A stretch of DNA of 64,000 nucleotides, taken from positions 1 through 64,000 of IMG/VR virus record IMGVR_UViG_3300049811_000692, one strand, 5' to 3'. The notes under the pieces are model-generated. The model had not been told where the DNA came from. It saw only the letters and a program-made list of their open reading frames with translations, and made no database searches. Shown in pieces: positions 8,889-56,433 of the stretch (position 1 is the first letter of the stretch; each line of letters begins with the position of its first letter). This DNA comes from a virus. A program made the position numbers and the translations under genes.

Positions 8889-8931
8889 ATGGGGCTGGCC
8901 CGCCAGCCCCCGAGCGGTGCCGAGGAGACCA

Positions 8932-10809
8932 ATGAGCGACCAGGAGCTTTCGAGGCCGGGACCGCCAGGCGAGCCGCCGGGGACCCGCGCCGCTTCCATC
9001 CCCCGCTACCTCATCGATCGGGCCGCCCAAGGCCTGCGCGCGCTCATGCGCGGCCCCGAGCAGTTCTCGACCATCCGGGACAACGCCACCCCACCGCCGC
9101 CCACCAACCGGCCCGTCCAGCCCCCCGAAGTGCCCGCCAGCGCCACCGCCGCCTCGCCGGTCGAGGGCAGCGGCTACATGGGGCCCGGCGTCCCGCAGCG
9201 CCCCGCGATCGTCGAGTGGTCCGAGGTCGCCGGCCGCGCCTTCGACTACCAGCCCGGCATCAACCTCGACCTCAGGCCCCGCGGCACCGAAGGCATCACC
9301 TTCGAGATGCTGCGGAACCTGAGCCGCAACTACGACTTGCTCCGCCTCGCCATCGAGACCCGCAAGAACCAGCTCGCCAAGCTCGGCTGGTCCATCCTGC
9401 CCCGCCTCGACCCGGGCGAGCAGTTCCGCCGCCCAGCCGATGAGAGCTGCCGCGCCGTCGAGACGTGCCTGCGCCGCCCCGACGGGGTGAACGCCTGGCC
9501 CGAGTGGATCCGCATGATCGCCGAGGACAGCTTCGTCTGCGACGGCGTGGCCATCTTCCGGCGCCGCAACGCCGACGGGAAGCCCTACGCGCTCGAGGTC
9601 GTGGACCCGGGCACCATCAAGCTCCTCATCGACGTCACCGGCCGCCGCCCGCTGCCGCCGACGCCCGCCTACTCGCACGTCATCAAGGGCATGCCGCTCG
9701 CCCAGTACACCACGCGCGAGATGAGCTACTGGATCCGCAACCCCTCCTCGGATCGCGTGTACGGCTACGGCGAGGTCGAGCAGATCATCCGCACCGTGAT
9801 GATCGGCCTCGCCCGCATGGCCAAGCAGCTCGGGCACTACAACGGCTCGAACATCCCCGATGCCATGCTGCCCATGCCGCCTAACTGGAACCCGGCCCAG
9901 ATCGCCGAGTTCGAGCGGCACTTCCTGCAGATGATGCAGAACCCGGGGATGAAGCGGCGCGTCCACTTCATCCCGGGCGGCGTCGGCCAGCCGATCCTCA
10001 ACTCGACCGAGCAGACGCTCTTCGGGGGCTTCGACGAGTGGCTGGCGCGCATCGTCTGCTACGCCTTCTCGCTGCCGCCCTTCCCCTTCGTCCAGCAGAC
10101 GAACCGCGCCACCGCGCAAACCCAGTACGACGCCGCGCTCGAGGAGGGCCTCGCGCCCTTCCTCGCCAGCATCAAGGCGTTCATCGACCACGAGATCGCC
10201 GAGTTCTTCGGCTTCCCCGACCTCGAGCTGGTCTGGGACGACGTGCGCAAGCTCGACCCCGCCGAGCAGGCGAACCAGGACCAGGTGGACATGAAGTCCG
10301 GCCTGGCCTCGGTGGACGACGTGCGCGCCAAGCGCGGCCTCGACCCGGCCGGGCTCAGCGAGCCCCTGGTCTTCGGGGTGGGGCCGATGGGCTTCCTCTC
10401 CGTGAAGCAGATCCAGGCGATCCTCGAAGACGGCTCGAACATGCCGCCGTCCCCGGAGATGCTGGCGATGCAGCAGGCGGGGATGGGCGGGATGCCGGGC
10501 GATGACCCGCTGGCCGACGCGGACCCGGCCCTCCTCGAACAGCTTGGAATCGACCCGCAGGCCGCCGTGCAGGGCGCCGGGGTCGGGGGCGGCGCAGTGG
10601 GTCGGGGGACCGGCGCCGCCCCTTCTCTGGCCCAGATCGCGCGCACGGTGCAGACGCCGCCCGCGGTCAAGGCGCTCCTCGCCGGCATCGCCAGCCGAAC
10701 GCCCGCGGGGCCGGCCGAGGAGCCGCCCGAGAAGGCGGCGCCCATGACGGCCAAGAAGCCGCCCCCCAAGGTCGCGGCGAAGGAGGAGGAGGACGATGGC
10801 GGGGCGTGA
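8932..10809 (+). CDS. Phage portal protein
   Basis: FDYQPGIN, LRNLSRNYDLLRLAIETRK, PYALEVVDPGTIK, YGYGEVEQII, DEWLARIVCYAFS.PP, EEGLAP, VDDVRAKRGLDP; first gene of the head module. Confidence 0.9.
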   Translation: MSDQELSRPGPPGEPPGTRAASIPRYLIDRAAQGLRALMRGPEQFSTIRDNATPPPPTNRPVQPPEVPASATAASPVEGSGYMGPGVPQRPAIVEWSEVAGRAFDYQPGINLDLRPRGTEGITFEMLRNLSRNYDLLRLAIETRKNQLAKLGWSILPRLDPGEQFRRPADESCRAVETCLRRPDGVNAWPEWIRMIAEDSFVCDGVAIFRRRNADGKPYALEVVDPGTIKLLIDVTGRRPLPPTPAYSHVIKGMPLAQYTTREMSYWIRNPSSDRVYGYGEVEQIIRTVMIGLARMAKQLGHYNGSNIPDAMLPMPPNWNPAQIAEFERHFLQMMQNPGMKRRVHFIPGGVGQPILNSTEQTLFGGFDEWLARIVCYAFSLPPFPFVQQTNRATAQTQYDAALEEGLAPFLASIKAFIDHEIAEFFGFPDLELVWDDVRKLDPAEQANQDQVDMKSGLASVDDVRAKRGLDPAGLSEPLVFGVGPMGFLSVKQIQAILEDGSNMPPSPEMLAMQQAGMGGMPGDDPLADADPALLEQLGIDPQAAVQGAGVGGGAVGRGTGAAPSLAQIARTVQTPPAVKALLAGIASRTPAGPAEEPPEKAAPMTAKKPPPKVAAKEEEDDGGA

Positions 10810-12703
10810 AGACCGGCAGCCGGCCATCCCGGCCGCGCTGGGCGCGGGGGCAGGCGTCTATGCGGGCTGGAAGGGCGCGAAGGCCCTGAACGGCGTCCGC
10901 CGTGACGTGGTGGCGGGCAACATCAAGGCGGCCCGGCGCGGGACCGAGCAGCGGGCGGCGCGCATGGCGGCGAGCGGCCAGGGCGGGCAGGTGGCCGGCC
11001 TGCGAGCCAAGGTGCGCCAGGAGGCGTTCAAGATCACGGCGCAGGCGCAGCGCAGCGCCCCGAATGGTGGGCGGGTGCTTGGGACCGTCTCGCCGGCCGC
11101 GCTGCCGAAGCTCTCGGAGGCACCCGGGCGCGCGCTGGCGGCGCGCGTGCCGCGCCTGAGCCCCTGGGCCAAGGGGGCGACGAAGGTGGGCCTGGCGGGC
11201 GCGGCCGCAGGCTGGGCCGCGTCGAAGATGGGGTGGTTCGACAAGGCGGCGGGGGCCGCGGAGCTGCGCAAGGCCTGGTCGCTCGCCAGCTGGCTGGGCG
11301 GCTCGCGGCGCATGAAGCCGCCGCCAGCCCGGCGCTCGCTCTACGCGCCCGAAGACCCGGGCTACGCCGACACGCGCCTGGCGCCCAAGGCCGTGCAGCC
11401 AGCCGGCGCGCCGGCGCAGCGGTGGAAGAAGTTCAACCGCGTGGGGGGCGGCTCCTACTGGCGCGACAGCTGGCGGGGCGACCTGCAGGAGGGGCTGCGG
11501 CAGAGGGGGCTGATGAAGGAGGCGCCGCCAGCCTCCGAAGAGGAGCGGTGGGCTCGTATCGGCGCGGGGTCAGTGGGGGGCGCGGCAGCTGGCCTGGTGG
11601 GCGGAAGCCTCGGCGCGCTGGTCGGCGAGGGCGCGGGGCAGATCAGCGAGGCTAAGCTTCGCAGTCCGACGCTCACCAAGCGCTCCCCCGGCACGCCGCT
11701 CTCCGAGGAGGAGCGCCAGCAGCGCGTGGAGGCCGCCCGGGCGCGCTGGGCGAACCACATCCCCGACGCTGACCCCGAGCCGGCACCGGCCGCGGCCGCG
11801 GCACGGGCGAAGTGGCGCCCGCCCAGCCAGCGCATCAACCAGGTCAGCCGGAAGGAGTACGCGGCCCGCAACGCCGCGGCGAAGGAACGCTGGCGCGCCA
11901 TCCAGGAGGCGAAGTTCAACGACCGCGAGGCGCGCCGCGCGAAGCTCGCCGCCGGCGAGGAGGCGCCCCCCGACAAGGGGAAGGTGTACTTTGACCCCAC
12001 CACCCGCCCCGAGCAGCCGGCCGAGCCGCGCCCGCAGGGCCGGGGCTGGACCGGGGCACGCCTCGGTGTCGGCCGCGGCGTGAAGACCGCCACCTGGCCG
12101 GGCAGCCGGGCCTGGGACGTGCAGGACGGGAAGCTGGTCGCCTACGAGACGCCCGAGAAGGGCCCGGGCCGCACCTACCGCACCTGGAAGGTGACGCCCC
12201 TCAAGCCGAAGGACATGCCCGACGCCGAGTACATCGCGATCGGCCGCAAGGCGGTCGCGCAGATGGAGGGCTGGAAGGGGCCGATCTTCGAGGACATCGT
12301 CCGGACGGACAGCTTCCGGGACAAGCCCGTGATGCCGGCCGACCCCGACCCGCGGGTGGTCCGCATCGCCTGGAACCACGCGCGCCAGATGGCGCTGAAC
12401 AACGTGATGCTCCAGCGCGTCGAGGGAGACTTCTCCTTCAACCCGCGGGTGCGCGAGCAGCTGCGGGGCTACGAGGGTCTGGTGCGGGACCTGACCTACC
12501 GGCTGACCGGCCGGCTGCGGCACGAGACGCCCGAGACTTGGGCACGCTTCCGGGCCGAGTTCGGCCAGGAGAAGGCCGATGGGGCGGTGTACCTCAAGGA
12601 CACGAAGGGCGGCTTCAAGGCGGGCGAGAAGCGCAAGGCCGGGCAGCGCCACGCGGTCCTGGTGAAGCGGGCAGGGGGTGCCGATGCCGCGGCTTCTCGA
12701 TGA
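10796..12703 (+). CDS. Putative internal head cargo polyprotein 1 (cationic Gly/Ala-helix modules plus unknown globular domain)
   Basis: GGAGG RBS; modules separated by ELRK, GLMK and TLTK; leader LSEEERQQRVEAARARW at 11699-11749. Confidence 0.7.
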   Translation: MAGREDRQPAIPAALGAGAGVYAGWKGAKALNGVRRDVVAGNIKAARRGTEQRAARMAASGQGGQVAGLRAKVRQEAFKITAQAQRSAPNGGRVLGTVSPAALPKLSEAPGRALAARVPRLSPWAKGATKVGLAGAAAGWAASKMGWFDKAAGAAELRKAWSLASWLGGSRRMKPPPARRSLYAPEDPGYADTRLAPKAVQPAGAPAQRWKKFNRVGGGSYWRDSWRGDLQEGLRQRGLMKEAPPASEEERWARIGAGSVGGAAAGLVGGSLGALVGEGAGQISEAKLRSPTLTKRSPGTPLSEEERQQRVEAARARWANHIPDADPEPAPAAAAARAKWRPPSQRINQVSRKEYAARNAAAKERWRAIQEAKFNDREARRAKLAAGEEAPPDKGKVYFDPTTRPEQPAEPRPQGRGWTGARLGVGRGVKTATWPGSRAWDVQDGKLVAYETPEKGPGRTYRTWKVTPLKPKDMPDAEYIAIGRKAVAQMEGWKGPIFEDIVRTDSFRDKPVMPADPDPRVVRIAWNHARQMALNNVMLQRVEGDFSFNPRVREQLRGYEGLVRDLTYRLTGRLRHETPETWARFRAEFGQEKADGAVYLKDTKGGFKAGEKRKAGQRHAVLVKRAGGADAAASR

Positions 12704-12875
12704 GCGCCGCGCGCGGGCCGAGGCCATGTGGGGCACCTACCTCGCGCGGGTGATCGTAGGCGCGGTGGCGGGGGCGCTGGTGGTGTTCGGCCTGGGGGTG
12801 ACGATCGCCTACTGGCGGGCGCACGGGCGCTTCGGGAGCCAGGCCGACATCCTGAACTGGCTCTTCGGGCTGTGA
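12684..12875 (+). CDS. Small single-TM membrane protein
   Basis: VIVGAVAGALVVFGLGVTIAYW; fills the gap and overlaps the next GTG start. Confidence 0.6.
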   Translation: MPRLLDERRARAEAMWGTYLARVIVGAVAGALVVFGLGVTIAYWRAHGRFGSQADILNWLFGL

Positions 12876-15715
12876 GCGGGACGCTGACGGAGGCCGAGCG
12901 CCAGCAGCGCGTCGAGGCGGCGAAGGCCAGGTGGAGGAAGTGGCGCGAGCGCGGCGCCGCGGCCGTGGGTGCCGGGCTGGGGGCGTGGGGTGGCGCGGAA
13001 CTCGCGGGCCGGGCGGTCGAGATCGGCGCCCAGGCTGGTTTGGAAGGGGGGCGATCCCAGGCCAGCGCGGCCCTTGCCGTGGCCGAGCGGCGGGTGCGCC
13101 GTCATGCCCGCAAGGCGGGCCGGCAGATCGAGAACGCCGCCTACGAGTGGCCCATGGGGGCCTACTACCGGTTCAGCGGACGGGCGCAGCGCCTGGCCCA
13201 GAAGGATGCGGCGCGGCTCTCAGGCATCCACCCGAGCGCCACGCGCGCGACGCGCCGGCAGCCGCGACGGGAGCATAGCGAGGCCGACCTGGCGCGCCGG
13301 GCCGACATCTTGACCGGCCGAAGCCCCGAGCTGCCCTCGGGCCGCGACTATGCGCGGACGAGGGCGCGCCTCAAGGAGGTGGCGGCGCTCGAGGAGCTGG
13401 TGGCGCGCTGGCCGCAGCAGGCGACGGCCGAGGAGCTGCGGCGATTCCAGAGCGCGAAGGGGCCGAGCGACGCCCTGCATCGCGCTCGGCTGCGCGCGGC
13501 CGCGGCGCTCCCGAAGACCAAGCTCACCTTGGAGCGGACGGGCACCGGCATTCGGCCGGGGCGCTCCCCGACGCCGGCGCTCGAGGCGCGTCTGGCCGAT
13601 GCGCGCGCGAAGGCCGACAGCGCCACCGAGGTTCGGCTTCGGGCGGGAGAGCTCTACCGCAACCCGCCCGATCCGAAGCGCTGGAAGATCGCGGGCGAAG
13701 ATCGGCGGCCCTACCCGCAGCGCTCCCTGGGGCCGGCCGAGCAGAGGCTCTGGCAGGACCGCCCCTTCGAAGTCGGCGGGCCGCCGCCCAAGCAGCGGCG
13801 CACGCGCGCCTGGCCGACGCGGGCCGACTTCGAGACGCTGCGCGAGGAGGTGCGGGCCAGCGTGCGGCAGCGGCACGCGGCCTTCGCGAGCGCGGAGCGC
13901 GCCCGCGGCGCCGGGAAGGCCGAGGCGGCTCGCGGGGCCGGGGCGGCCACGGCAGCGCGGTGGCGACGCGCGGCCGGGAAGGCCAGGTCCGGCGCGGCGG
14001 CAGCCGGGGCCCTTGGTGGCGGCCTCCTGGCCTACGGCCTGGCCCGCGCCATGCGGCGCAAGGAGCCGGTGGAGAAGCTTGCCAAGGGGCTGACCGAGGC
14101 GCAGCGCCAGCAGCGCGTCGAGGCGGCCAAGGCGCGGTGGGCGAAAGCGAGGACCGCCACCGCCGCGCAGCGGGTGCGCGAGGCCAGGGCGCGAGGGGAG
14201 CGCCTGGTCTATCGCGGAGCGCCGACCCCCGATTGGCAGCCGACCCCACGGAAGTACGCGGGGATCTTCGTGACTCCGAGCAAGGGCTTCGCCCGAGACT
14301 ACGCCTCCCCGACCGCGGGAAGGGCCGGGTGGATCACGTCCTACGCCATGCGCAACAACCTCGACCTGATCGACCTGGGCGAGGCGGGCCGCGAGGTGAC
14401 GGCGCGAGAGCCAGACGCGCGCGGGAAGCGCTTCATTCGCCGGTCTCAGGCGCTCCTCGCCGCCGAGATCGAGCACGGCGACGCGGCCGCAAAGCGCAGG
14501 GCCATGCGCCGCGGCCTTCGCGGTGATGATGAGGTTCCCGAAAGCGCGCGGTACCGGGAGGGTGCGGCTTGGAGCAGCCACACGCTGGCCTTCCCGCACG
14601 ACGCCCACAACCTTCGCGGCCTGCGTGCCGACGGGACGCGCCTCGTCAATCTCGAGGCCGACGCGCCGTCCATCATGATCGGGGACGGCAAGCTCCTGCG
14701 TCCGCTCTACGCGCGCAGCGCTGGCTCCGACCGCAAGGTCATGCTCGCCAAGGCTGCCCCCGACGAGCCGGGCAAGTCCGCGCCCGAGCGGGTGGCCGCG
14801 CGCACCGAGAAGACGCTCGCCCGGCGCCTCGCCTCGCTCTTCCAGGCGTGGGGGGCCAAGCCCAACGACACCGGCCGCGCCGAGCAGGTCGAGGAGGCCA
14901 TCCGCGAGGCCGTCCGCAACGCCTTCGAGGACATGGGGGGCGTCATCGAACGCGAGGGCGGCCTGCAGGCGCCGCCGACCGAGCAGAACCCGACCATCGC
15001 CTTCAACTTCGACATGCGGACCCAGCGCGTCGAGCAGGGCCTCCGGGAGTACGCCTTCGGCCTGGTCCGCGCGATCAGCAACGACAGCCGCGAGGCGATC
15101 CGCACGGCGATGCTGCTCGGCGCCACCACCGGCGCCACCATCCCCGACCAGGCGCGCCTCATCCGGCAGAGCGTGGGCCTCTCGCCCGGCCAGGTGCAGT
15201 GGGTCCACTCCTTCGAGCGCCAGCTGCGCCGCCTCGATCCCAGGGCGCTCGACCGCGCGCTGCGGGACCGGCGCTTCGACCCCACCATCCGCCGCGCCAT
15301 CGAGACGGGAACGCCGCTGTCGGACGAGCAGGTGGCGAAGTACGTGGACGCCTACCGCCGCCGCACCCTGGCCTACCGGGCGACGACCATCGCGCGCACC
15401 GAGGGCATCCGGGCGACCAACATGGCGAGCGTCGCCCAGGCCCAGGCGATGATCGAGGCCGACCCGACCCTCGACGTCGAGAAGACCTGGATCACCGCCG
15501 GCGACGAGCGGGTGCGCTCGAGCCACCAGCGCCTCTCGGGACAGGTGGTGGTGGGGATGAACACGCCCTTCACGACCACGGGGGAGGACGGGCAGCCCGT
15601 CCAGATCCGCTGGCCGCACGACCCGCTCGCGCCGGCGAGCGAGACGGTGCAGTGCCGCTGCGTCCTGGGCCTGCGGATCATCCGCAAGCCCGAGGCTGGC
15701 ACGCCCCTCGCCTGA
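12872..15715 (+). CDS. MuF/SPP1 gp7-family minor head protein with N-terminal cargo modules including an ART-like domain
   Basis: C-terminal RATTIARTE...KTWITAGDERVRSSH...WPHDP...ETVQCRC (MuF); internal VYRG...GIFVT....ARDYA (ART-like). Confidence 0.85.
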   Translation: MSGTLTEAERQQRVEAAKARWRKWRERGAAAVGAGLGAWGGAELAGRAVEIGAQAGLEGGRSQASAALAVAERRVRRHARKAGRQIENAAYEWPMGAYYRFSGRAQRLAQKDAARLSGIHPSATRATRRQPRREHSEADLARRADILTGRSPELPSGRDYARTRARLKEVAALEELVARWPQQATAEELRRFQSAKGPSDALHRARLRAAAALPKTKLTLERTGTGIRPGRSPTPALEARLADARAKADSATEVRLRAGELYRNPPDPKRWKIAGEDRRPYPQRSLGPAEQRLWQDRPFEVGGPPPKQRRTRAWPTRADFETLREEVRASVRQRHAAFASAERARGAGKAEAARGAGAATAARWRRAAGKARSGAAAAGALGGGLLAYGLARAMRRKEPVEKLAKGLTEAQRQQRVEAAKARWAKARTATAAQRVREARARGERLVYRGAPTPDWQPTPRKYAGIFVTPSKGFARDYASPTAGRAGWITSYAMRNNLDLIDLGEAGREVTAREPDARGKRFIRRSQALLAAEIEHGDAAAKRRAMRRGLRGDDEVPESARYREGAAWSSHTLAFPHDAHNLRGLRADGTRLVNLEADAPSIMIGDGKLLRPLYARSAGSDRKVMLAKAAPDEPGKSAPERVAARTEKTLARRLASLFQAWGAKPNDTGRAEQVEEAIREAVRNAFEDMGGVIEREGGLQAPPTEQNPTIAFNFDMRTQRVEQGLREYAFGLVRAISNDSREAIRTAMLLGATTGATIPDQARLIRQSVGLSPGQVQWVHSFERQLRRLDPRALDRALRDRRFDPTIRRAIETGTPLSDEQVAKYVDAYRRRTLAYRATTIARTEGIRATNMASVAQAQAMIEADPTLDVEKTWITAGDERVRSSHQRLSGQVVVGMNTPFTTTGEDGQPVQIRWPHDPLAPASETVQCRCVLGLRIIRKPEAGTPLA

Positions 15716-15795
15716 GGTGACGGCAGGCGGTAGGTGGCCGGCGCGGCGAGGGGAAGATGCCCCGCGGCCCCGTCCCAATCAAGCGTGACGAGGGG

Positions 15796-15828
15796 CTTGC
15801 GCCGCCCCGGCACCATGCCGCCACGGTG
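15796..15828 (+). promoter_or_regulatory. Putative late promoter CTTGC-N16-GCCGCCACGGTG
   Basis: Intergenic, 23 nt before ATG 15852; member of the repeated motif family. Confidence 0.7.
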
Positions 15829-15851
15829 GAGGACCAGCCCGGAGCGCCTCC

Positions 15852-17564
15852 ATGAACTTCACCGACGACCACCTGGCCGCCATCCAGCAGGCGATCGCGT
15901 CGCTGCCGACGCCGCTGGATCAGAACCGCGCCCTGGTCGCGGCGACGCTCTACGCCCAGGAGGCCGACGCGGCCCTGGCGAAGGGCGAGCGGCCGCCCGA
16001 GGGTGACGCACTCCGCAAGGCGGTGAACGAGGCGGTCGAGGGGGCGCTGGCGAAGGCGGAGGACGGGGCGCCGAAGAAGCGGCGCTCGCTGGTCGGGCAG
16101 GTGGCGGTCGGCGCGGTGACCGGCGCGGCCGCGGGTGCGGCGGGCTCGACGGCCAAGAGGCTTGGGACGGCATACGGGCTTCCGGCGACGATGCGGGCCT
16201 CCACCCCGGGGCAGCGCCGCGGCGTCTCAGATCTCATCGTGACAACGCAGCTCACCTCTAGCCCGAAGCGCCATGAGCTGTGGCGGAAGGCCACGAAGAA
16301 GCTGGAAGCGGGCGGGGGAATGACGGGGCGGGAAGTGTTCACCATGCGCCACGGCGCGGCCAAGGTGATCGCGGCGCTCCCGTCTCGGCGCTCGGTGAAG
16401 TACGGCGCGGCCGCCGGCGCGGCGGCGGGCGCGGGCATCTACGTGGGCAAGCGGCTCTTCGGGGGCAGCAAGGCCGAGAAGGCGGCGGCGGGCGGGGCGC
16501 TGGCGAAGGGGGAGGACGGGGCGCCGAAGAAGCGGCGCTCGCTGGTCGGGCAAGTGGCGGTCGGCGCGGCGACCGGCGCGGCCGCGGGTGCGGCGGGCTC
16601 GACGGCCAAGCGGCTCGCGGTGTCGCAAGGCCTTCCGGCCATTTCGATGCGCGGTAGCTCCAGGGACGAGCGCCGCGCGCTGTCTTCGATACTCTCGGCA
16701 GGGCAAGTTCTGAGCAGCCCGCTTCGCCACAAGGTCTGGATGGCTAGCACCGAAGACCTTCTGGCACGCGGCCAGTACGAGGCGCGCGACAGGGTGGCAA
16801 ATGTCATCGCGGCCCTGCCGTCTCGGCGCTCGGTGAAGTACGGCGCGGCCGCCGGCGCGGCGGCGGGCGCGGGCATCTACGTGGGCAAGCGGATCTTCGG
16901 AGGGCGCAGCGCCGAAAAGGCGGCGGCGGGCGGGGCGCTGGCGAAGGCCCTCTCCTCCCTCCCGCTCGCCCAGCGCGAGCACGCCATCGACCTGATCGAG
17001 GCCGGGCGCGAGGAGACGCTGAAGAAGATGTTCCCGGGCGTCCTCGCCGCGGCGAAGGGCCTGTGGACGGCGGCGAACGTCGCCGGCACCGGCATGGCCG
17101 TCCGCGACCTCTGGCGCGCCGGAAGCGCGGCCGCGGGCCGCATGGCCGGCTCTGCCGCAGGCGCGGCGCGCGGCGCGGCCATGGGCGCCTCCCGCGCCGG
17201 GCGCGCGGGCTACGCCGGTATCCGGGCCGGCATGCGCGGCTCGCCCCGCGTGTACTCGGCCGCCAAGGGGAAGTGGGGCGCGCGCGGCTTCGACGCCGGC
17301 GCCAAGCTGCGTGGGGCGGGCAACTTCGCCATGGCCCACGGCGGGCGCGCGGCCTCCGAGGCGGCCGAGGGTGTGGTGAGCCGCTACGGCCCCCGCGCCA
17401 TGCGCGCCGGCCAGGCGGCTCTCTCGAACCGGGGCGTGCAGATCGGCGCGGCAGGCGTGGCCGCCGGCGGCGTGGGGTCGAGCATGGGCTACCAGTCGGG
17501 CCGCCAGGACGAGCGGAACTCCAACCCCTTCATCCGCAACCAGCAGCGCCGCAAGGCCGTCTGA
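15852..17564 (+). CDS. Putative head cargo polyprotein 2 with tandem duplicated modules
   Basis: Acidic leader with ALAK/ALRK sites, two homologous modules and a third Gly/Ala/Arg-rich module. Confidence 0.75.
   Translation: MNFTDDHLAAIQQAIASLPTPLDQNRALVAATLYAQEADAALAKGERPPEGDALRKAVNEAVEGALAKAEDGAPKKRRSLVGQVAVGAVTGAAAGAAGSTAKRLGTAYGLPATMRASTPGQRRGVSDLIVTTQLTSSPKRHELWRKATKKLEAGGGMTGREVFTMRHGAAKVIAALPSRRSVKYGAAAGAAAGAGIYVGKRLFGGSKAEKAAAGGALAKGEDGAPKKRRSLVGQVAVGAATGAAAGAAGSTAKRLAVSQGLPAISMRGSSRDERRALSSILSAGQVLSSPLRHKVWMASTEDLLARGQYEARDRVANVIAALPSRRSVKYGAAAGAAAGAGIYVGKRIFGGRSAEKAAAGGALAKALSSLPLAQREHAIDLIEAGREETLKKMFPGVLAAAKGLWTAANVAGTGMAVRDLWRAGSAAAGRMAGSAAGAARGAAMGASRAGRAGYAGIRAGMRGSPRVYSAAKGKWGARGFDAGAKLRGAGNFAMAHGGRAASEAAEGVVSRYGPRAMRAGQAALSNRGVQIGAAGVAAGGVGSSMGYQSGRQDERNSNPFIRNQQRRKAV
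16041..16947 (+). repeat. Tandem duplication with near-identical flanks and diverged cores
   Basis: 16041-16157 vs 16494-16610 (117 bp, 3 mismatches); 16380-16454 vs 16818-16892 (75 bp identical). Confidence 0.92.
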
Positions 17565-17576
17565 GGAGACGCGCAG

Positions 17577-18671
17577 ATGATCACCCTCCCCCTGGCGAAG
17601 GTCGATGTCGAGCGCCGCCTGATCATCGCCCGCGCCGCGGCCGAAGAGCCCGACCGCTCGGGCGAGGTCATGGACTGGGCGACGGCCAAGCCCGAGTTCG
17701 AGCGCTGGTCGCGCAGCTTCGAGCTGGCGACCTCCCACCTCGGCCCGGACGCCATGTCCAAGGGCAACATCCGCCTCCAGCACGACCCGAAGCGCGTGGT
17801 GGGCAAGGTGGTGGAGCTGAAGCTCGACGACGACGCTCGCGCGGCCGACGTGGTCTGCAAGGTGGTGGACGATCAGGCGTGGCGGCTCTGCCAGGAGGGC
17901 TGCATCACCGGCCTCTCGATCGGCGGGTCCTACGGCAACAAGTGGACCGACGCGGCGACGGGCCTGAAGAAGTACACGCCGAAGATCACCGAGATCTCGC
18001 TGGTGGACAACCCGTGCATCCCGAGTGCCCGGATCGTCGAGCTGGTGAAGGCCGACGGCGCAGTGGAGGAGCTCCACCTGACCGGGCGCCCGCGCTCCTT
18101 CGACGAGGTGCTGAGCGAGACCCCGCCCGACTTCGAGGCGGCGCTGGCGAAGGTCGCGGCCGAGACGCCGGCCGACTTCGAGATGGCGCTGGCGAAGCGG
18201 ACGAAGGGGGCGCCGCTCTCGGAAAAGGAGCGGGAGCAGCGGCGCAACGCCGCGCGGCGGAAATCGGTGGTCTCAGGCGCGGTCGCCGGCACCGTGTACG
18301 GCGCGCTGGGAGGCCTCTTCGGCGCCAAGGCCGCGGCGCGGGCGCTGGAAGAGAAGATCGAGCGACGCCTCGCAGTCCCCCGGCGCGCCTCCGAGAAGGC
18401 GACCGACGGCATCACGATCGCGCAGCGCAAGATTGAGCAATACGACGACGGCATTCGCAGCACGCCCCACGGGAAGACCGTGGAGAACCTCAAGATCGCC
18501 GCGCTCCGGGCTGCCCGCGCAGAGGCCGACGCTAAGGCCACGAAGATTAGGCGCGTCCTACGGCCTGTGCAGTTCGTGGGGCGGCACGGCACCAAGATCG
18601 GCGCGGCGGTCGGCGCGGCGGCCGGCGCGGGTTTGGGTTACGCGGCGCACCGCCGGAAGGCACAGAAGTGA
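17577..18671 (+). CDS. Prohead maturation protease (HK97 gp4/XkdF-like) fused to a C-terminal cargo module
   Basis: PLAKVD..RRL...A..E.PDRSGE, NIRLQH (His), G.ITGLSIGG (Ser), EISLVDNPC.P; C-terminal ~160 aa cationic module. Confidence 0.88.
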   Translation: MITLPLAKVDVERRLIIARAAAEEPDRSGEVMDWATAKPEFERWSRSFELATSHLGPDAMSKGNIRLQHDPKRVVGKVVELKLDDDARAADVVCKVVDDQAWRLCQEGCITGLSIGGSYGNKWTDAATGLKKYTPKITEISLVDNPCIPSARIVELVKADGAVEELHLTGRPRSFDEVLSETPPDFEAALAKVAAETPADFEMALAKRTKGAPLSEKEREQRRNAARRKSVVSGAVAGTVYGALGGLFGAKAAARALEEKIERRLAVPRRASEKATDGITIAQRKIEQYDDGIRSTPHGKTVENLKIAALRAARAEADAKATKIRRVLRPVQFVGRHGTKIGAAVGAAAGAGLGYAAHRRKAQK

Positions 18672-19327
18672 TGCGCCTGGCCAAGCGCCAGTCCGGCGCC
18701 CCCCTCTCCGAGGCCGAGCGCCAGCAGCGCCGCGAGGCGGCCCGCGCGCGCTGGGCGGAAGCGGCCCGGGTGGGCGGCGGCGCCCTGGCGGCGGGTGCGC
18801 TGGGGTGGAGCGCGCCGAGCGCCCTGCTCGCGCCCCGCTCCCCCACCAAGGCCGAGGCCCGCAAGGTCTGGAAGACGGAGATGCGCGGCGTCGCCGGCGC
18901 CCTGAAGCGCGAAGGGGCCGACATCCATGAGCGCGCGGCCATCATGCGCGGCGTCGGCCGGTCCGTGATGCGGGACGTCATGGAAAGGCTGCGCCCGGTC
19001 GGGAACCGGCGCGCGCAGGCCGCGGCCGCGGTCGCCACAGGCCTGCTCGGCGGCGCCCTGGCGGCGCGTGGCGCGCGCCTCACCCAGTCGCGCCCCGCCC
19101 CCGACGCCCCAGGCGCCGTCGCCCATCAGCGCCGCGAGCGCGAGAACAAGGTCGCCCAGGCGTCCATGACCGGGAGCCTGACCGGCCTCGGCATCTACGG
19201 GGGCGTGCGGTCCGCGCTGGCCGGCATGGGCCGCCGCCCGCTCGCTCCCCATCCGGCCTTCGTCGCCGCCGCGGCCACCGGCGTCGGCGTCCTCAACGGC
19301 CTGCGCGTTGCCCGCAAGGAGTCCTGA
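18671..19327 (+). CDS. Putative head cargo protein 3 (four Gly/Ala hydrophobic helices)
   Basis: Starts MRLAK-RQSGAPLSEAERQQRREAARARW. Confidence 0.7.
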   Translation: MRLAKRQSGAPLSEAERQQRREAARARWAEAARVGGGALAAGALGWSAPSALLAPRSPTKAEARKVWKTEMRGVAGALKREGADIHERAAIMRGVGRSVMRDVMERLRPVGNRRAQAAAAVATGLLGGALAARGARLTQSRPAPDAPGAVAHQRRERENKVAQASMTGSLTGLGIYGGVRSALAGMGRRPLAPHPAFVAAAATGVGVLNGLRVARKES

Positions 19328-22300
19328 TGCCCAAGCCGCGCTTCACGCCGGACCTCATCACCGAGCTGCGCCACCTCGTCATCGCCCACAACGAGGCGGG
19401 GCATGAGCGCGTTCGGCTCGAGGAGCTGAAGAAGGCCTACGCCTCGAACCATCGCGGGCGGAACGGCCATGAGAGCGCCATGGGCGGCGTGCGCAAGCTC
19501 CTGCTCAGGAAGGCCGACGAGTACCCGCGCGACCAGAAGGGGCGCTTCACCTTCGGCCAGCGCAGGGCGTGGGGCGATGCTGCCTCGCCCGAGCAGCACC
19601 AGCAGCTCCGCGAGGACAACGCCGGCTACGCAGCCTTCCAGAACGCGGTGATCCCGGAGACGCGGGGCACGCAGCTGCTTCCCTCGCTCCTGGGCGCGGC
19701 GGGCATTGTCGAGGGCGCGGTGCGCGGTGCGACCACCGGGCCGACCTGGCGCCGCAACGCGCCGAGCAAGACGATCCGCTTCATGACGGCGCCGCTGTAC
19801 GGGCTGCCGTTCGAGAGCGTGCAGCGCGTCCGGCGCGGCATCAACAGCGGCTTCGATGCCGTCGCGACGGCGGGGGAGGCGGTCACGCTGGCGCCGTCGC
19901 GCTGGCTGGTCCGCCGCGGCGCGGCTGAGAGGGCGAAGATCAAGGCGCAGCCCGCGCCCACGACGCTGGCCGGGAAGATCGGCCGCCAGGAGAAGCTGCT
20001 GCGCACCGGCGCCCAGCACCGGGTCGCCGCCGGCGCCGCGGGGGCGCTGCTCTACGGCGTGCCGGCGGCGATGCTCTATGCGGCGGGCGGGCGGGTGGTC
20101 GGCCCCTACTACGACGCGATCAAGGGCGGGCGCACGATCGAGAAGATGCACGGCGGCGACCCGACGGCGCGGGCGCTGCTGCAGAAGGCCATGGGGCCGC
20201 AGATGCTCTTCGCGAAGGCGGGGCAGATCGCGCAGCGCTTCGCCAGCGCGGCGCAGGCGGGGGCGCGCGCGGCGCGGGCCTCGGGCATTCGCCGCGGCGC
20301 GGCCGCGCTCATGCCGCAGCGCCCCTTCATCCGGGCCGAGCGCCTGACGGCGCAGCTGCGCGGCCGGGTCGGCAAGCTCGGGGTGCGGCGCCCCGGCCTC
20401 TACGCGGCAGGCGGCGCGGCGCTCGGCGCAGCGGGCGCGGCCGGCGCGGCCTACGGCGGCACGAAGCTCGCCGAGCGCGTGTACTACCGCGACAAGGAGG
20501 GGCAGTTCACCTCCAAGGACAAGGCGGTCATCACGGGGGCGGCGGGCGCGGCCGGCGCGCTGATCGGCGCGGCGCTAGCCGGGCGCGCGGCCGGGCGCCT
20601 CAATGCCAAGGCCCGCGAGGCGGTGATGCGCCGCTTCAAGGGCGTCTCGACGGCCTCGGGAATGATCGACGGCGAGGGGCGCAAGATCACGGTCGCCACG
20701 AAGGCGCGGCTGGACAGCGCCACGGCCGCCCTGAAGGCGCGCGGCAAGCCGCTGGCGGCCGACGAAGCCGACGCGGCGGCGCTGGCGAACACCTACGCCG
20801 ACGCGATGGTGACGCGCCTCTCCGACCCGAAGACCCCGCGCAACGCCATCGCCGAGCGCGTGGAGCGCATGGCCGGAAGCGCCCACGTCCAGCGGAAGTT
20901 CACCTCGCCGTCCTACCAGGGGACGGTCAGCACCATCCGCGACGCGGCGAAGAAGCGCCTGGATGCCCGGATCGCCCAGCTCCAGGAGCCCTGGGAGAGC
21001 TGGTACCGCAGCCAGCTGGTCGAGGCAGGGCGCGCGCGGGCGCAGCAGCGCCTTCGCACCACGGCGGCCAAGGTGAAGGGGGGCGGCTTCTGGGATGGGG
21101 CGCCGAACGCGGGCGCGCTGCGCGCGGAGACGCTGAAGAAGTTCCCGGCGCGGGACGGCGCCTACACCCTCGACCAGGTGGCCGACTTCCTCGAGCAGAA
21201 GGGGGCCAAGGTCCAGGCCGCGGCGCTCAGGGCCGACGCCTCGGCCCTAGCAACGGCGACCAAGGACTTCGACGAGCAGCTGGGGCGCGCGATCGGCGCG
21301 CGGGACAAGGCGCGCGCGCAGGCCGACCGCCTGACGCGGGCCGCGGCCAAGGCCGAGGAGAAGTTCAAGGCCGCGCAGACCGCCTCGCTCGACGTGCCGC
21401 GCGGCGAGAAAGTGCCGGCGCCGAGGCTCGAGGCGAAGGCGCTGGGCGACGAGGTGTGGGGCGAGGTCACGCAGGTGATCGGCAACCCCGACGCATCGGC
21501 GCCGGCGAAGTCGGTGACGTTGAACCCCACGATCGTCGATGCGCTCAAGAACGCGGCACAGACCTCCAGCGCCAAGGCGGCCGCGGCCGAGGCTGCCCTG
21601 GCGCGGCCGGCCATCGGGGAGACGGCGGGCGATCACGCGAGGCGCATCCGCAGCGCGCTCGGGGACGACTTCAAGGAGGGCCTGCCGCGGCCGCGCAACC
21701 CATTCGGCTCGGGCGCGGACGGCTTCCTGCCGATGCGCCCGACCCCGGAGGACGTGACGAAGGAGATCGCGGCCGAGACGGCGCGCGACATCGCGAAGCT
21801 CCACGACGAGATCGTGGCCGAGGCGGTGAAGGTGGGCGAGAAGGCGGGACGCGCGGCGCGCGCGATGCCGGCGGCGATGCGGCTGCTCGAGGCGCGGCCG
21901 AGCGCGGCGCGGGCGGCGGTCGGCGCCGTGGCGGGGGCGGTGGGGAGCCGCACGACGGCGGCGCGGCGCGAGCTGCGCAACATCGTGGCCCAGATGCGTC
22001 GCGACGTGGACGTGGACCTGGCGGGGCGGCCGCAGAAGATCCTCGACGCGGCCGAGCGCGCGGGCGCGAAGGTGGCCGACGTGTTCGCGGGGAAGAAGGG
22101 CGCGGACGGGAAGCGCGCGGGCGGCGTGGGGCGCTGGCTGTGGCAGCGCAAGGGCCTCATCGCGCTCAGCCCGGTGGCGGGCGCGGTCGGCCTCGACCTG
22201 GGCTCGGACGGGAAGATCAATCTCGACTGGGCGCGGATGAAGGCCGCGGCGCAGGACCCGAAGCAGGCGGCGCTGACCGCGCTGACGGACACCCACAAGA

Positions 22301-24186
22301 AGGGCGGGGCCTACTTCCGCCTGATGAACGCGGCCACTGCCGACGAGGCGGTGATCACGGGCGTCACCATGAAGACGAAGGACGGGCGGCATCTCTTCGT
22401 GAGCGGCGTGGTCGAGCAGACGGGCAAGCCGAACGTCTCGATCACGCCGGGCTCGCCGGTCGAAGACGTGGAGAAGCGCTTCCGGAAGGAGGGCGGCGGG
22501 GGCCAGGGGAACCAGGACCAGAGCCGGCGCCTGGGCAACGCCGACGTCCTGAAGCGCGCCGAGGACGCGGCCAACAAGCTCGCCGGCAACCTCAAGCAGG
22601 AGGACGTTGGGGGCGAGAAGTTCCGACACCTCAACCTCTCGGGCCTCTCGGGGGGGCAGAAGGACGAGGCCGAGAAGGCAGCGAGCGCGCTGAAGGGCGA
22701 CCTCAACAACGCCTCGGCGAAGTTCGCGAGCGGCCAGCCCAACGCCGAGCAGACCTACGGGCTCCTTGGCTCGGTGCTGTCCGGCCCCGGGCGCCTGCTG
22801 TCCGCGCAGGAGAAGGTGGACTTCGCCCTCAAGGCCTTCGGGGCCAAGGGCAAGGAGGCGCGCGACGGGCTGGGCGGCAACGCCACGGCGCAGTCGGTGA
22901 ACGACGCCATCGTCAAGCTGGTGCGCGAGGCCCCGAACCCGGGGAACGACGGCGACGCGACGCGCCTGCGCCGGGCGGCGCGCCTGCTCGGGCAGCACCT
23001 CAAGACGCAGGTGCCGCTCTCCAACTACGAGGAGATCGACGCGGCGATCAGCGCGAAGCCCCGCTCGGGCGGGGGCGGCGGGCAGCCGCGCCAGGAGGGG
23101 CAGCGCCAGGGCGAGCCGCGCGCGGAGCGGGCCGCGGCCGCGCCAGAGCCCGCCCAGGCGCAGCGCTCGGGCGCCGCCCCCGAGCTGCGCGAGGAGCAGC
23201 GGCTCGATGTCGGGCCAGGCCGCAAGTACTCGGTCCTCTACCCGGCCAAGAACCCGGATCGCTGGTCGGACGACGACTGGATCAAGGTCACCGCCCGGGA
23301 GATCGAGGTCCAGGCGCGCGAGATCCTCAACGACGCTGCGACGCCGCGGGGCCAGAAGTGGGAGCAGCTGGCCAACACGGCGGACAACAACCTGCGCGCC
23401 TCGGTGGCCGGGCTGTGGTCGGCCTACCGGGACCTCATCAACCGCAACTACCCCGACGCCTCGGAGCGGGACCAGCGGCGTGCGTTGCAGCTCTACGTGA
23501 TGCAGCTCGTCGGGGAGCAGGCGGGCGGGGTGGAGTTCGAGCCGCTGCGATTCCGCCCCGTCGAAAAGGCGACCCGCGCCGGGACGCTCCGCAAGGACGC
23601 GGGGGGCGCGCTGCGCCGCCCCTGGGACGAGGCGAAGATCCGGCGCAACCCGGGCGGCAGCGACCAGGGCGGCGAGTTCGCCTCCAAGGGCGGCGCGGCG
23701 TCGCATGCGGGCGCGGGCGCGAAGCTGCCGGGCAAGGCAGAGAAGGAGGAGCGGGGCTTCTTCGAGCCGGTGCGGTTCGGCGCCACGGTCGGTGGCGTGC
23801 TGGGCGGGCAGGCGGCCTGGGAGCTGATCAGCCGCTACGCCCCCAAGGTGAAGGGCGGCCTGTCGGCGAAGTCGGGCCGATTCGTGGTGACGATGCTGGC
23901 CTCGATGGCGGGCGGCGCCGCGGCCAGCAAGGCGGGCGAGCGCCTGGGCGCGATGACCTACGAGCGCCGCGGCCAGCGTGCGCCGACGCCCTACGAGGAG
24001 CCCGAGCGCCCGGGCGGCGAGGAGGCGGCGCGGGCGGCCGGCGCGATGATCGGCTCCTTCGCGGGCGCGGCGGCGCGCTCGGTCCCGGGCGGCGTCCTGC
24101 TGGGCGGCGCCGGTCAGCTGGGCGGTGAGGAGCTGATGGCGGCAGCCTACCGGGTCGCGAAGAACCGCTTCGGGATGTTCGCGTGA
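19327..24186 (+). CDS. Large (1619 aa) putative internal virion/ejection polyprotein
   Basis: Long ORF with strong codon bias between protease and scaffold; three R..(.)G[RQE]F motifs, Gly-zipper helices, L-x-K linkers. Confidence 0.75.
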   Translation: MPKPRFTPDLITELRHLVIAHNEAGHERVRLEELKKAYASNHRGRNGHESAMGGVRKLLLRKADEYPRDQKGRFTFGQRRAWGDAASPEQHQQLREDNAGYAAFQNAVIPETRGTQLLPSLLGAAGIVEGAVRGATTGPTWRRNAPSKTIRFMTAPLYGLPFESVQRVRRGINSGFDAVATAGEAVTLAPSRWLVRRGAAERAKIKAQPAPTTLAGKIGRQEKLLRTGAQHRVAAGAAGALLYGVPAAMLYAAGGRVVGPYYDAIKGGRTIEKMHGGDPTARALLQKAMGPQMLFAKAGQIAQRFASAAQAGARAARASGIRRGAAALMPQRPFIRAERLTAQLRGRVGKLGVRRPGLYAAGGAALGAAGAAGAAYGGTKLAERVYYRDKEGQFTSKDKAVITGAAGAAGALIGAALAGRAAGRLNAKAREAVMRRFKGVSTASGMIDGEGRKITVATKARLDSATAALKARGKPLAADEADAAALANTYADAMVTRLSDPKTPRNAIAERVERMAGSAHVQRKFTSPSYQGTVSTIRDAAKKRLDARIAQLQEPWESWYRSQLVEAGRARAQQRLRTTAAKVKGGGFWDGAPNAGALRAETLKKFPARDGAYTLDQVADFLEQKGAKVQAAALRADASALATATKDFDEQLGRAIGARDKARAQADRLTRAAAKAEEKFKAAQTASLDVPRGEKVPAPRLEAKALGDEVWGEVTQVIGNPDASAPAKSVTLNPTIVDALKNAAQTSSAKAAAAEAALARPAIGETAGDHARRIRSALGDDFKEGLPRPRNPFGSGADGFLPMRPTPEDVTKEIAAETARDIAKLHDEIVAEAVKVGEKAGRAARAMPAAMRLLEARPSAARAAVGAVAGAVGSRTTAARRELRNIVAQMRRDVDVDLAGRPQKILDAAERAGAKVADVFAGKKGADGKRAGGVGRWLWQRKGLIALSPVAGAVGLDLGSDGKINLDWARMKAAAQDPKQAALTALTDTHKKGGAYFRLMNAATADEAVITGVTMKTKDGRHLFVSGVVEQTGKPNVSITPGSPVEDVEKRFRKEGGGGQGNQDQSRRLGNADVLKRAEDAANKLAGNLKQEDVGGEKFRHLNLSGLSGGQKDEAEKAASALKGDLNNASAKFASGQPNAEQTYGLLGSVLSGPGRLLSAQEKVDFALKAFGAKGKEARDGLGGNATAQSVNDAIVKLVREAPNPGNDGDATRLRRAARLLGQHLKTQVPLSNYEEIDAAISAKPRSGGGGGQPRQEGQRQGEPRAERAAAAPEPAQAQRSGAAPELREEQRLDVGPGRKYSVLYPAKNPDRWSDDDWIKVTAREIEVQAREILNDAATPRGQKWEQLANTADNNLRASVAGLWSAYRDLINRNYPDASERDQRRALQLYVMQLVGEQAGGVEFEPLRFRPVEKATRAGTLRKDAGGALRRPWDEAKIRRNPGGSDQGGEFASKGGAASHAGAGAKLPGKAEKEERGFFEPVRFGATVGGVLGGQAAWELISRYAPKVKGGLSAKSGRFVVTMLASMAGGAAASKAGERLGAMTYERRGQRAPTPYEEPERPGGEEAARAAGAMIGSFAGAAARSVPGGVLLGGAGQLGGEELMAAAYRVAKNRFGMFA

Positions 24187-24272
24187 CCTTCGTCCAGTCC
24201 GGCGGGGCCTTCTCTGGGCTGACCGCCACCGACCTGGCGGTGCCGCGCGAGCGATGGCGGCGGCTGAGGGCA

Positions 24273-24305
24273 CTTGCGCGAAAGCCCCGTCGTGCCGCCA
24301 CGGTG
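24273..24305 (+). promoter_or_regulatory. Putative late promoter CTTGC-N16-GCCGCCACGGTG
   Basis: Upstream of the scaffold ATG at 24354. Confidence 0.7.
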
Positions 24306-24353
24306 AAGGAGCAACTCCTGAAGAGCGGGCCCGAGGCCCTGGAGAGGATCGAG

Positions 24354-25715: not shown

Positions 25716-25786
25716 GATGGACAAACCACAGAATCGCTGAAAGCGACGAAGGTAGGGCCTTGAGAGGCCGCGGCCTGGAGCCGCCT
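25716..25786 (+). promoter_or_regulatory. MCP upstream elements: GATGGACA-N8-AATCGCTGAAA and CTTGA-N16-GCCGCCT
   Basis: First element is shared with the tail tube upstream region (30020-30046); second matches the late promoter motif. Confidence 0.6.
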
Positions 25787-25853
25787 TCGACCCGTTCCGT
25801 TTCCTCGTGGGTCGCGAGGACGAGCCCCCCGAGAGGGGCGCGGAACGCGCGAG

Positions 25854-27383: not shown

Positions 27384-27390
27384 TGCTTGT

Positions 27391-27412
27391 GACGGGGGCG
27401 AAAGCCCCCGTC
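27391..27412 (+). terminator. Hairpin after MCP (terminator or mRNA stabiliser)
   Basis: gacgggggc-GAAA-gcccccgtc; weak U-tract. Confidence 0.6.
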
Positions 27413-27442
27413 CTTCCCCCAACCATTACTTGCGAGGATTGC

Positions 27443-27730
27443 ATGGCACGCTTCAAGTTGGCCCCGGACGTCTGCGGCGTCGGCCTCGAAGACGGCTTCT
27501 TCCCGGTGGACGAGTATGGGGTCGTCGAGATCCCCGATCACCTGGTCCCCACGCTCCAGGAGAGCGGCATCCAGGCCGATCCGGTGGTGGACCTGCCTTC
27601 GGTCGAGCCGGTCGCGCCGACCAAGGGCGGCAAGGGCGGCAAGGGCGGCAAGGGCGGCACGACCGACGCCACCGGCACCGAGACCGGCGGCACCGAGGCC
27701 GGCGGCACCGAGACCGGCGGCACCCAGTAA
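27443..27730 (+). CDS. Small head-associated protein with (KGG)4 and GTE[TA]G repeats
   Basis: GAGG RBS; 9-bp and 15-bp tandem repeats at 27622-27725. Confidence 0.7.
   Translation: MARFKLAPDVCGVGLEDGFFPVDEYGVVEIPDHLVPTLQESGIQADPVVDLPSVEPVAPTKGGKGGKGGKGGTTDATGTETGGTEAGGTETGGTQ

Positions 27731-56281: not shown

Positions 56282-56433
<152 letters not shown>

Follow-up and report, generated by a model that had tools for sequence, protein, structure and literature searches.

The 64,000-nucleotide window analysed here (positions 1 to 64,000 of IMG/VR virus record IMGVR_UViG_3300049811_000692, which is 105,428 bp long with ~72% G+C) carries, between its portal gene and its putative scaffold gene, a 13 kb array of six genes, g1–g6, encoding about 4,400 amino acids (aa) of extra protein. 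The products of g1–g6 are, on balance, likely to be head-internal proteins that are cut by the prohead protease at the joints between their modules and retained with the DNA. The stretch is best explained as an enlarged 'cargo bay' of the head module in a clade of ~100 kb temperate siphoviruses. The order of the genes, the identities of the domains, the charge, the statistics of the sites, their conservation in position and the reshuffling of modules are direct observations, and we infer cleavage at the sites, encapsidation, ejection and the functions of the modules. The genes of the head module are as follows.

8917–10809, + strand, portal protein, 630 aa (Pfam Phage_portal, 5e-16; phrog_2662, 4e-54), the upstream limit of the array
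10796–12703, + strand, g1, 635 aa, net charge ~+49, no named domain, conserved C-terminal domain
12728–15715, + strand, g2, 995 aa, net +67, MuF domain at the C-terminus
15852–17564, + strand, g3, 570 aa, net +48, two tandem modules
17577–18671, + strand, g4, S78 (HK97-type) prohead protease, 364 aa, net +13 (Pfam and PHROG matches)
18668–19327, + strand, g5, short basic protein, 219 aa, net +23
19327–24186, + strand, g6, giant protein, 1619 aa, net ~+81, with orthologues in relatives
24183–25628, + strand, g7, putative scaffold, 481 aa, net ~-51 (position, charge and N-terminal homology), outside the interval of the initial annotation and used as the reference substrate
25854–27383, + strand, major capsid protein (MCP), 509 aa (phrog_13692, 3e-106)

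The genes from the portal through the MCP have a G+C content at third codon positions (GC3) of 0.90–0.96, and g1–g6 and the other head genes are therefore regarded as real. An open reading frame (ORF) at 25760–27730 was rejected as a gene, being a wrong-frame Arg/Pro-rich read that overlies the MCP gene. All six array proteins are strongly basic (+49, +67, +48, +13, +23 and +81 for g1–g6), in contrast to the acidic g7 protein (-51). The position, charge and N-terminal homology of g7 suggest that it is the scaffold; its extremely acidic mid-protein stretch is an (E-E-G/E-G-E)n tract encoded by imperfect 9-nt repeats at 24929–25073. The MuF-bearing g2 is the second gene after the portal, and its MuF and putative ADP-ribosyltransferase (ART)-fold domains point to head-internal or ejected proteins. 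Downstream of the head genes are a lambda-like tail module, including gpL-like and gpJ-like proteins, and an integrase (56390–57475), so that the virus is a temperate siphovirus, as the initial annotation had proposed. The tape measure protein (32148–37604) is 1818 aa long, which implies a very long tail.

In the g7 scaffold 15 of the 25 lysines lie within [LIVMF]-x-K (5.6 expected, p = 6e-5); the earlier claim that such sites dominate its lysines stands, with these figures replacing the about 14 of ~22 first given. The pattern is common to six clade scaffolds (that of the window and those of five relatives), from which a scaffold-type site of roughly [DEP]-[EA]-L-x-K↓[ASQ] was derived, the arrow marking the putative cut. 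A position weight matrix (PWM) of this extended site, trained for the window on the scaffolds of the five other phages only and scored on the relatives by leave-one-out, found 23 strong sites among 42 window genes, 19 of them within g1 to MCP. The leave-one-out matrices found 9–15 sites per phage array versus 1.4–2.6 in shuffles (about 5- to 8-fold), 0–1 per phage in portals (none in that of the window) and almost none in tail and early proteins. The enrichment is marked in g3 (five sites versus 0.3 expected). The tape measure protein has two scaffold-type sites (K29 and K612), which were treated as chance occurrences. Doubled sites are likewise in excess, with seven observed versus 1.6 expected in the window, 19 versus 6.5 in the relatives and none in the portals; this enrichment covers both arrays and scaffolds. 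The crude [LIVMF]-x-K motif is not the true signal, which is carried by the extended site: the supposed enrichment of L-x-K in the array holds for extended and doubled sites, both of which exceed shuffles, and fails for the bare motif, an outcome that the initial annotation had itself listed as counting against its reading.

Many sites are followed by one of two leaders. Type A, [FW]-D-E-x-x-H-[PR]-R-x3-4-G-[RKQ]-F, occurs clade-wide and, in two smaller relatives, also 3' of the portal domain. Type B, PLSE-x-ERQQR-x-EAA-x-ARW, is present in five copies in four window genes and is detectable at the DNA level as a 77-nt repeat family; apart from leader B, the intra-window BLAST similarities obtained without composition correction were set aside as mostly low-complexity noise. 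Leader A begins at most 16 residues after an [LIVMF]-x-K in 15 of 17 copies (2.7 at random positions) and leader B in seven of nine (1.4 at random positions); for neither type did any of 2000 randomisations attain the observed value. Leaders also stand at true N-termini (g5, P0125, P0129 and probably g2), and a Gly/Ala-rich uncharged helix is usually the next element after the leader.

The sites keep their positions in relatives whose MCPs are 45–52% identical to that of the window, and at most of these borders at least one flank can no longer be aligned. The sequence L-[AG]-K↓[AS]-x-P lies directly 5' of the MuF domain in five of five phages, and F-x-x-L-x-K follows the catalytic domain of the protease in five of five. 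In the giant protein g6 three elements are conserved in P0132, P0133 and G001–G005: an L-x-K↓A near residue 62 that precedes a leader, a doubled IEK..L-x-K near residue 287 and, ahead of W/F-D-E..G-G-E-F, a G-x-L-x-K around residue 1423. An [LF]-[VL]-K follows the C-terminal domain of g1 at a conserved position. In 26 homologues the conserved core of the MCP is preceded by a doubled ALAK..LQK, whose K29 hardly varies. The features of the window genes, with sites read from the sequence and leaders from the motif, are given below.

11237–11272, + strand, g1 site FDK..ELRK159, FDKAAGAAELRK
11669–11680, + strand, g1 site TLTK295
11702–11749, + strand, g1 leader B
About 12128–12670, + strand, g1 C-terminal domain of unassigned fold, ending in VLVK624, conserved in G001–G004 and P0126/P0129
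12887–12934, + strand, first leader B of g2, then Gly/Ala helix, Arg-rich core and Gly/Ala helix
14069–14086, + strand, g2 site VEKLAK453
14093–14140, + strand, second leader B of g2
About 14159–14752, + strand, g2 putative ART-fold domain (residues about 478–675; predicted fold), ending in MLAK675 (14741–14752)
14753–15712, + strand, g2 MuF domain (PF04233, 42.9 bits versus a cut-off of 29.6, 9e-11; phrog_3517, 2e-60)
Residues 44–68 of g3, + strand, three LxK sites
16056–16508, + strand, g3 module 1 (Gly/Ala helix, variable core, Gly/Ala helix), ending in AEKAAAGGALAK (16473–16508)
16509–16946, + strand, g3 module 2 (same layout), ending in AEKAAAGGALAK (16911–16946)
Residue 8 of g4, + strand, PLAK
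18141–18152 and 18186–18197, + strand, two ETP.DFE.ALAK linkers of g4 (K192 and K207) after the protease domain (residues 1 to about 190)
18219–18263, + strand, g4 leader B, then a two-helix module, forming a C-terminal module on the protease
18707–18754, + strand, g5 leader B, preceded by MMRLAK6 and followed by three Gly/Ala helices
19498–19548, + strand, g6 LLLRK62 and leader A, conserved in relatives
20137–20187, + strand, g6 IEK..LLQK287 (IEKMH..LLQK), conserved in relatives
20482–20508, + strand, g6 YYRDKEGQF between two Gly/Ala helices, a conserved feature
23560–23679, + strand, g6 VEK..TLRK1423 and WDE..GGEF, with VEKATRAGTLRK at 23560–23595, conserved in relatives
25929–25940, + strand, MCP DLQK29, with LIK14, 5' of the conserved core of the MCP (25854–27383)

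All of the site strings quoted in the initial annotation were recovered in the genes named, as were the uncharged Gly/Ala helices around Arg-rich cores that make up the modules, the MuF domain and the S78 protease with its C-terminal module. Its further claims that the sites stand at module borders and resemble those of the scaffold and of the segment before the MCP core were borne out, the border sites being kept in five relatives. It had also taken all of the products to be small, which does not hold for g6, where a ~1,130-residue piece (288–1423) would be left.

The g4 protein matches PF04586 (Peptidase_S78; 25.4 bits versus a cut-off of 21) and phrog_9427 (1.8e-10) and shares the motifs H..(V/P)VGK and G(L/M)S(I/V)G with HK97 gp4; in a by-eye alignment its LQHDPKRVVGK and GLSIGGS match FNHKTWELPVGK and GMSVGFS. 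The His and Ser motifs are kept in five relatives, and their His and Ser are taken here to be the catalytic residues of HK97 gp4. The known substrates of HK97 gp4 are the scaffolding domain of the capsid protein and the protease itself. The maturation cut in HK97 falls at K103/S104 (PMC10275583). It reads T-F-N-K↓S, and the delta domain of gp5 holds five more [LIV]-x-K sequences (LIQK, VSK, DLMK, ELTK and ELIK). The HK97 cut, which the initial annotation had described as falling after Lys, is thus also of the hydrophobic-x-Lys type, and such cutting is therefore in character for the S78 family; by this analogy g4 may cut after hydrophobic-x-Lys in the present phage. The two systems have in common the S78 protease family, and the F-N-K↓S cut of HK97 and the several [LIV]-x-K of its scaffolding domain resemble the putative sites here; HK97 is not known to have separate cargo proteins, whereas here such sites are spread over the about 4,400 aa of the array.

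In the proposed mechanism the basic g1–g6 proteins would co-assemble inside the prohead with the acidic scaffold, and g4 would cut after [L/M]-x-Lys, with doubled sites dropping a short spacer. The same cut would shred the scaffold and remove about 29 residues from the MCP, while in the array, which has few sites and these at module borders, each freed piece would start with leader A or B followed by a Gly/Ala hydrophobic helix. The pieces would comprise the MuF domain, the putative ART-fold domain, the conserved g1 domain, helix–core–helix hairpins and one piece of ~1,130 residues. Scaffold fragments would exit, and the basic pieces would remain with the DNA, probably being ejected from the capsid together with it. 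Membrane-active, DNA-condensing or anti-defence roles for the pieces, as first suggested, are guesses, the only property of this kind seen being a strong positive charge.

Relatives were gathered through an alignment of the MCP, which yielded 577 confirmed MCP-family loci in IMG/VR; searches of IMG/VR for related loci with single proteins found none. The closest MCPs (P0005–P0009) are 60–68% identical to that of the window, and the named MCP relatives come from Rhodovarius and Falsiroseomonas (Acetobacteraceae). The hosts of the clade are probably Acetobacteraceae-like. In most members of the family the portal lies about 1–9 kb upstream of the MCP, with the protease directly 5' of the MCP, and across the family the portal-to-MCP distance runs continuously from ~1 to 22 kb. 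Five genomes of ~90–111 kb, one of them with terminal repeats and judged complete and another called a provirus, have 11–22 kb between portal and MCP, the ~11 kb of G003, taken across the two ends of a contig that is 83% complete, being a lower bound. A giant of 1500–1650 aa stands 5' of the scaffold in all four ~100 kb relatives whose stretch was read through; the N- and C-termini of the giants are conserved and their middle is divergent.

The same modules recur in these relatives in other arrangements, as the initial annotation had anticipated. In G004 (L089 11246–15067) and G005 (L091 12324–17036; joined coordinates) proteins of 1273 and 1570 aa begin with the S78 domain, so that over 1,000 aa of cargo-like sequence are joined to the protease; the window equivalent is split into g4 and g5, which are in different frames. 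P0126 (1563 aa; from a 101,850 bp contig taken as belonging to the same clade) holds in series an ART-like domain, leader B, the g1 C-terminal domain and a second ART-like domain, P0129 has three units of L-x-K↓AFD..KH.RG..G.F, helix and ART-like domain, and P0127 joins an InPase domain to two ART-like copies. The modules are thus found in other orders with the same punctuation kept. Within g3 the two tandem modules (16015–16947; ~150 aa each) have DNA flanks of ~120 nt and ~100 nt that are 93–100% identical and cores of ~200 nt that are 23–63% identical, a pattern suggesting either that the flanks have undergone gene conversion or that the cores were replaced by recombination through them. 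A diversity-generating mechanism for these cores was set aside, as no reverse transcriptase was noticed among the window genes scanned.

Several results weigh against the array proteins being cut at their joints and carried inside the head. The bare [LIVMF]-x-K motif occurs in g1–g6 about as often as expected, and g6 as a whole has a single PWM site (about 0.8–1.4 expected). Two copies of leader A (residue 457 of G004 and residue 475 of G005) lack an upstream Lys site, there is no L-x-K at the N-terminal border of the g1 C-terminal domain, and a conserved L-x-K with its leader could be a docking element and not a cut site. No cultured phage among 50,697 in GenBank carries the array proteins. 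Finally, the ART-like segment of g2 has no match to a Pfam family at E ≤ 5, its five homologues are likewise without a match to an ART family, and its AlphaFold2 (AF2) model is of low confidence (mean predicted local distance difference test score, pLDDT, of 61.6, with core strands at 70–85).

Only six proteins came back from an exhaustive HMMER search with the ART-like segment, and its alignment is too shallow for a good model. The sole sequence-level link to the ART families is an ESM Atlas lead (0.89) to a cluster with PF18760 in 24% of its members. The Foldseek list of Protein Data Bank (PDB) matches for the model consists almost entirely of ART folds (MbcT, ParT, RES, PARP1 and the cholera, pertussis and diphtheria toxins), with TM-scores of 0.2–0.36 and a single match at E < 0.001. 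For this model of modest quality, the top match is an ejection protein, chain 9k3a_B of the cyanophage A4 pre-ejectosome (E = 7e-4). The invariant motif YRGAP has its Arg in place of the strand-1 His of ART-PolyVal (PF18760), the window copy (IFVTPS) has Phe where most homologues have the strand-2 Tyr, and no acidic residue is invariant among the six sequences. In g2, as in P0125 with its unrelated context, (M/L)LAK closes the module, and the BLAST alignment stops exactly at that Lys in both. Assignment of the g2 segment as a putative ART-fold domain is made with modest confidence.

Of the alternatives, a rather unlikely one is that the array is an expanded scaffolding core that builds and sizes a capsid enlarged to hold ~100 kb of DNA, with the giant as ruler or core, and that it is broken down at L-x-K and cleared out before packaging or in its course, with no delivery to the host. 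Large arrays are indeed found in the ~100 kb members, the small relatives having portal, protease-scaffold and MCP within ~1–5 kb; the giant stands right before the scaffold with conserved ends and a divergent middle, and the protease sites are common to array and scaffold. However, the array proteins are strongly basic and the scaffold acidic, the sparse border sites would yield large folded pieces and not small peptides, and MuF and ART-fold domains are characteristic of head proteins that are retained or ejected (PMC5512222). In addition, the portal–MCP distance is not stepped by capsid size, and reshuffling of modules between close relatives would be unusual for a size-determining structure.

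Distinctly unlikely is that L-x-K, leader and helix together form a docking motif that binds scaffold, portal or shell, by which intact proteins are recruited and stay uncleaved, as do many giant-phage head proteins. The leader and helix are conserved jointly with the Lys site, leader A occurs in the giants between two helices without an upstream Lys site, and in SPN3US most head proteins (42) escape the prohead protease (PMC10052503). Against this, L-x-K alone fills the scaffold and precedes the MCP core with no leader there, it matches the context of the HK97 cut, and the leaders at the true N-termini of g5, P0125, P0129 and probably g2 fit a free N-terminus left by cutting. A chance origin, in which Ala/Leu/Lys-rich low-complexity helices happen to give L-x-K and the modules are over-read, would account for the unenriched bare motif and for the many intra-window similarities that disappear under composition correction, but it is essentially excluded by the extended-motif, doubled-site and leader tests, all of which exceed shuffles, and by sites that hold their positions where MCPs are 45–52% identical and at least one flank is unaligned.

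A bolder proposal, tentative and on the unlikely side, is that the joint (hydrophobic-x-Lys, leader and Gly/Ala helix) is a portable 'cut-and-load' cassette of HK97-type capsids, such that any domain behind it would be recruited into the prohead, freed by the S78 protease and delivered to the next host. Payload modules would then be traded and multiplied by recombination at the joints. Such a cassette would explain the 1–22 kb portal–MCP gap, the protease with more than 1,000 aa of cargo, the reshuffled polyproteins and the flank and core pattern of g3, and, much as the loading peptides do for encapsulins, it would provide tailed-phage capsids with a natural code for taking in cargo.

The initial annotation had called the array a new system, which is too strong: the concepts of polyvalent MuF/ART proteins and of proteins processed by a protease inside the head are established, and T4, phiKZ/SPN3US and the polyvalent proteins are close precedents for the concept (PMC5512222, PMC10052503). 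In T4, as proposed here, the prohead core takes up basic proteins and an ADP-ribosyltransferase (IPI–III and Alt) along with the scaffold; scaffold, capsid protein and cargo have in common a short site of the hydrophobic-x-charged type (L/I-x-E in T4), and the cargo remains with the DNA and is injected (PMC5512222). T4 differs in its gp21-family protease with Glu at P1, the present protease being of the S78/HK97 type with a putative Lys at P1, and its cargo consists of single small proteins, in contrast to the multi-module polyproteins of a temperate siphovirus. The capsid targeting peptide of T4 precedes the cut and is removed, whereas the leaders here lie downstream of the Lys site, have no site after them and would stay on the product, so that the analogy is one of mechanism only.

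The phiKZ/SPN3US phages (proteases gp175 and gp245) resemble the case proposed here in having many head-internal proteins with multiple protease motifs, some of them multiply cut, and in the large mass that is packaged and ejected; they differ in being jumbo myoviruses and in that the identified cuts made by SPN3US gp245, self-cleavage apart, all remove N-terminal propeptides (PMC10052503). No homology to phiKZ/SPN3US proteins was detected in Pfam, PHROGs and PDB sequence searches. We know of no repeated joint of leader and Gly/Ala helix in these phages, no search of the papers on them having been aimed at it.

Polyvalent and MuF-fused proteins likewise combine several unrelated domains in one portal-adjacent polypeptide, with MuF serving head association; ART is their commonest payload, sometimes in many copies, and processing by peptidases has been proposed (Iyer et al. 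2017, PMC5512222). Both g2 (putative ART-fold and MuF domains, next to the portal) and P0127 (InPase and ART-like domains) would fit this pattern; g1, g3, g5 and g6 are without a recognised effector domain. The processing of polyvalent proteins is ascribed to internal peptidase domains (PMC5512222), whereas here there is a separate prohead protease and defined punctuation, and most modules are non-enzymatic Gly/Ala-helix hairpins and basic cores, unlike polyvalent effectors. The ejection proteins of podoviruses (T7 gp14–16 and cyanophage A4 gp26–29) are also large, basic and capsid-stored, with Arg/Lys contacts to DNA (PMC12002296); they show no sequence homology to the array proteins, in which no lytic domain was found. 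With a long lambda-like tail and an 1818-aa tape measure protein, a capsid-derived channel should not be needed.

What is new is the combination of an S78 protease with a Lys site, leaders after the putative cut, Gly/Ala-helix joints and multi-module polyproteins, including cargo fused to the protease, in a temperate siphovirus; no description of the leader motifs or of phage head polyproteins of this kind was found in the literature. If the joints are true cut-and-load signals, they would be a readable code predicting which proteins of many HK97-type phages are carried in the capsid and delivered with the DNA, a question that now needs virion proteomics phage by phage. They would also reveal a pool of fast-evolving delivered proteins (among them the putative ART-fold domain, the conserved g1 domain and the hairpins) that could serve host takeover, defence evasion or DNA condensation, and would offer an easy means of tagging foreign proteins so that they are packed into phage capsids. 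The analysis defines a clade of ~100 kb temperate siphoviruses with no cultured member, in which ~13% of the genome would be head cargo.

Among the remaining features of the array, the C-terminal domain of g1 gave an AF2 model with a pLDDT of 73 and a confident core, for which Foldseek found no match in the PDB or BFVD, while a VIA wide search yielded nothing beyond ties under Z 5. Sequence searches of Pfam, PHROGs and the PDB with g1, g3, g5, g6 and pieces of them gave no match. The tail of g3 is rich in Gly, Ala and Arg, and the C-terminus of g6 is Gly/Ala-rich. The YYRDKEGQF of g6 (20482–20508) and the HPRDPHTGQF at the same place in the giants of G004 and G005 are leader-A-like and have no upstream Lys site; a motif of this type between Gly/Ala helices therefore suggests a role independent of the cut. 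The longest ORF of g2 opens at a GTG at 12728, while the database form P0124 (947 aa) opens 48 codons later; the start is probably at 12872, which would place leader B at the extreme N-terminus as in g5.

Among the same GenBank phages, megablast with the array region and tblastn with g6 and g1 gave no match, and of the window head proteins searched only the MCP reached isolates, namely distant Brevundimonas phages at 41%. One of the Brevundimonas phages, Polewnik (L001 15589–21425), has a portal–MuF fusion with MAK/LEK/LTK between the domains, an acidic protease–scaffold fusion with 20 of its 46 lysines in hydrophobic-x-K, and an MCP with EGLAK39↓STFAQS. Strzyga, another cultured Brevundimonas phage, likewise has this MCP sequence, a protease–scaffold fusion with many hydrophobic-x-K and the MAK/LEK/LTK between portal and MuF. 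Polewnik is a usable wet-laboratory model for the specificity of the protease.

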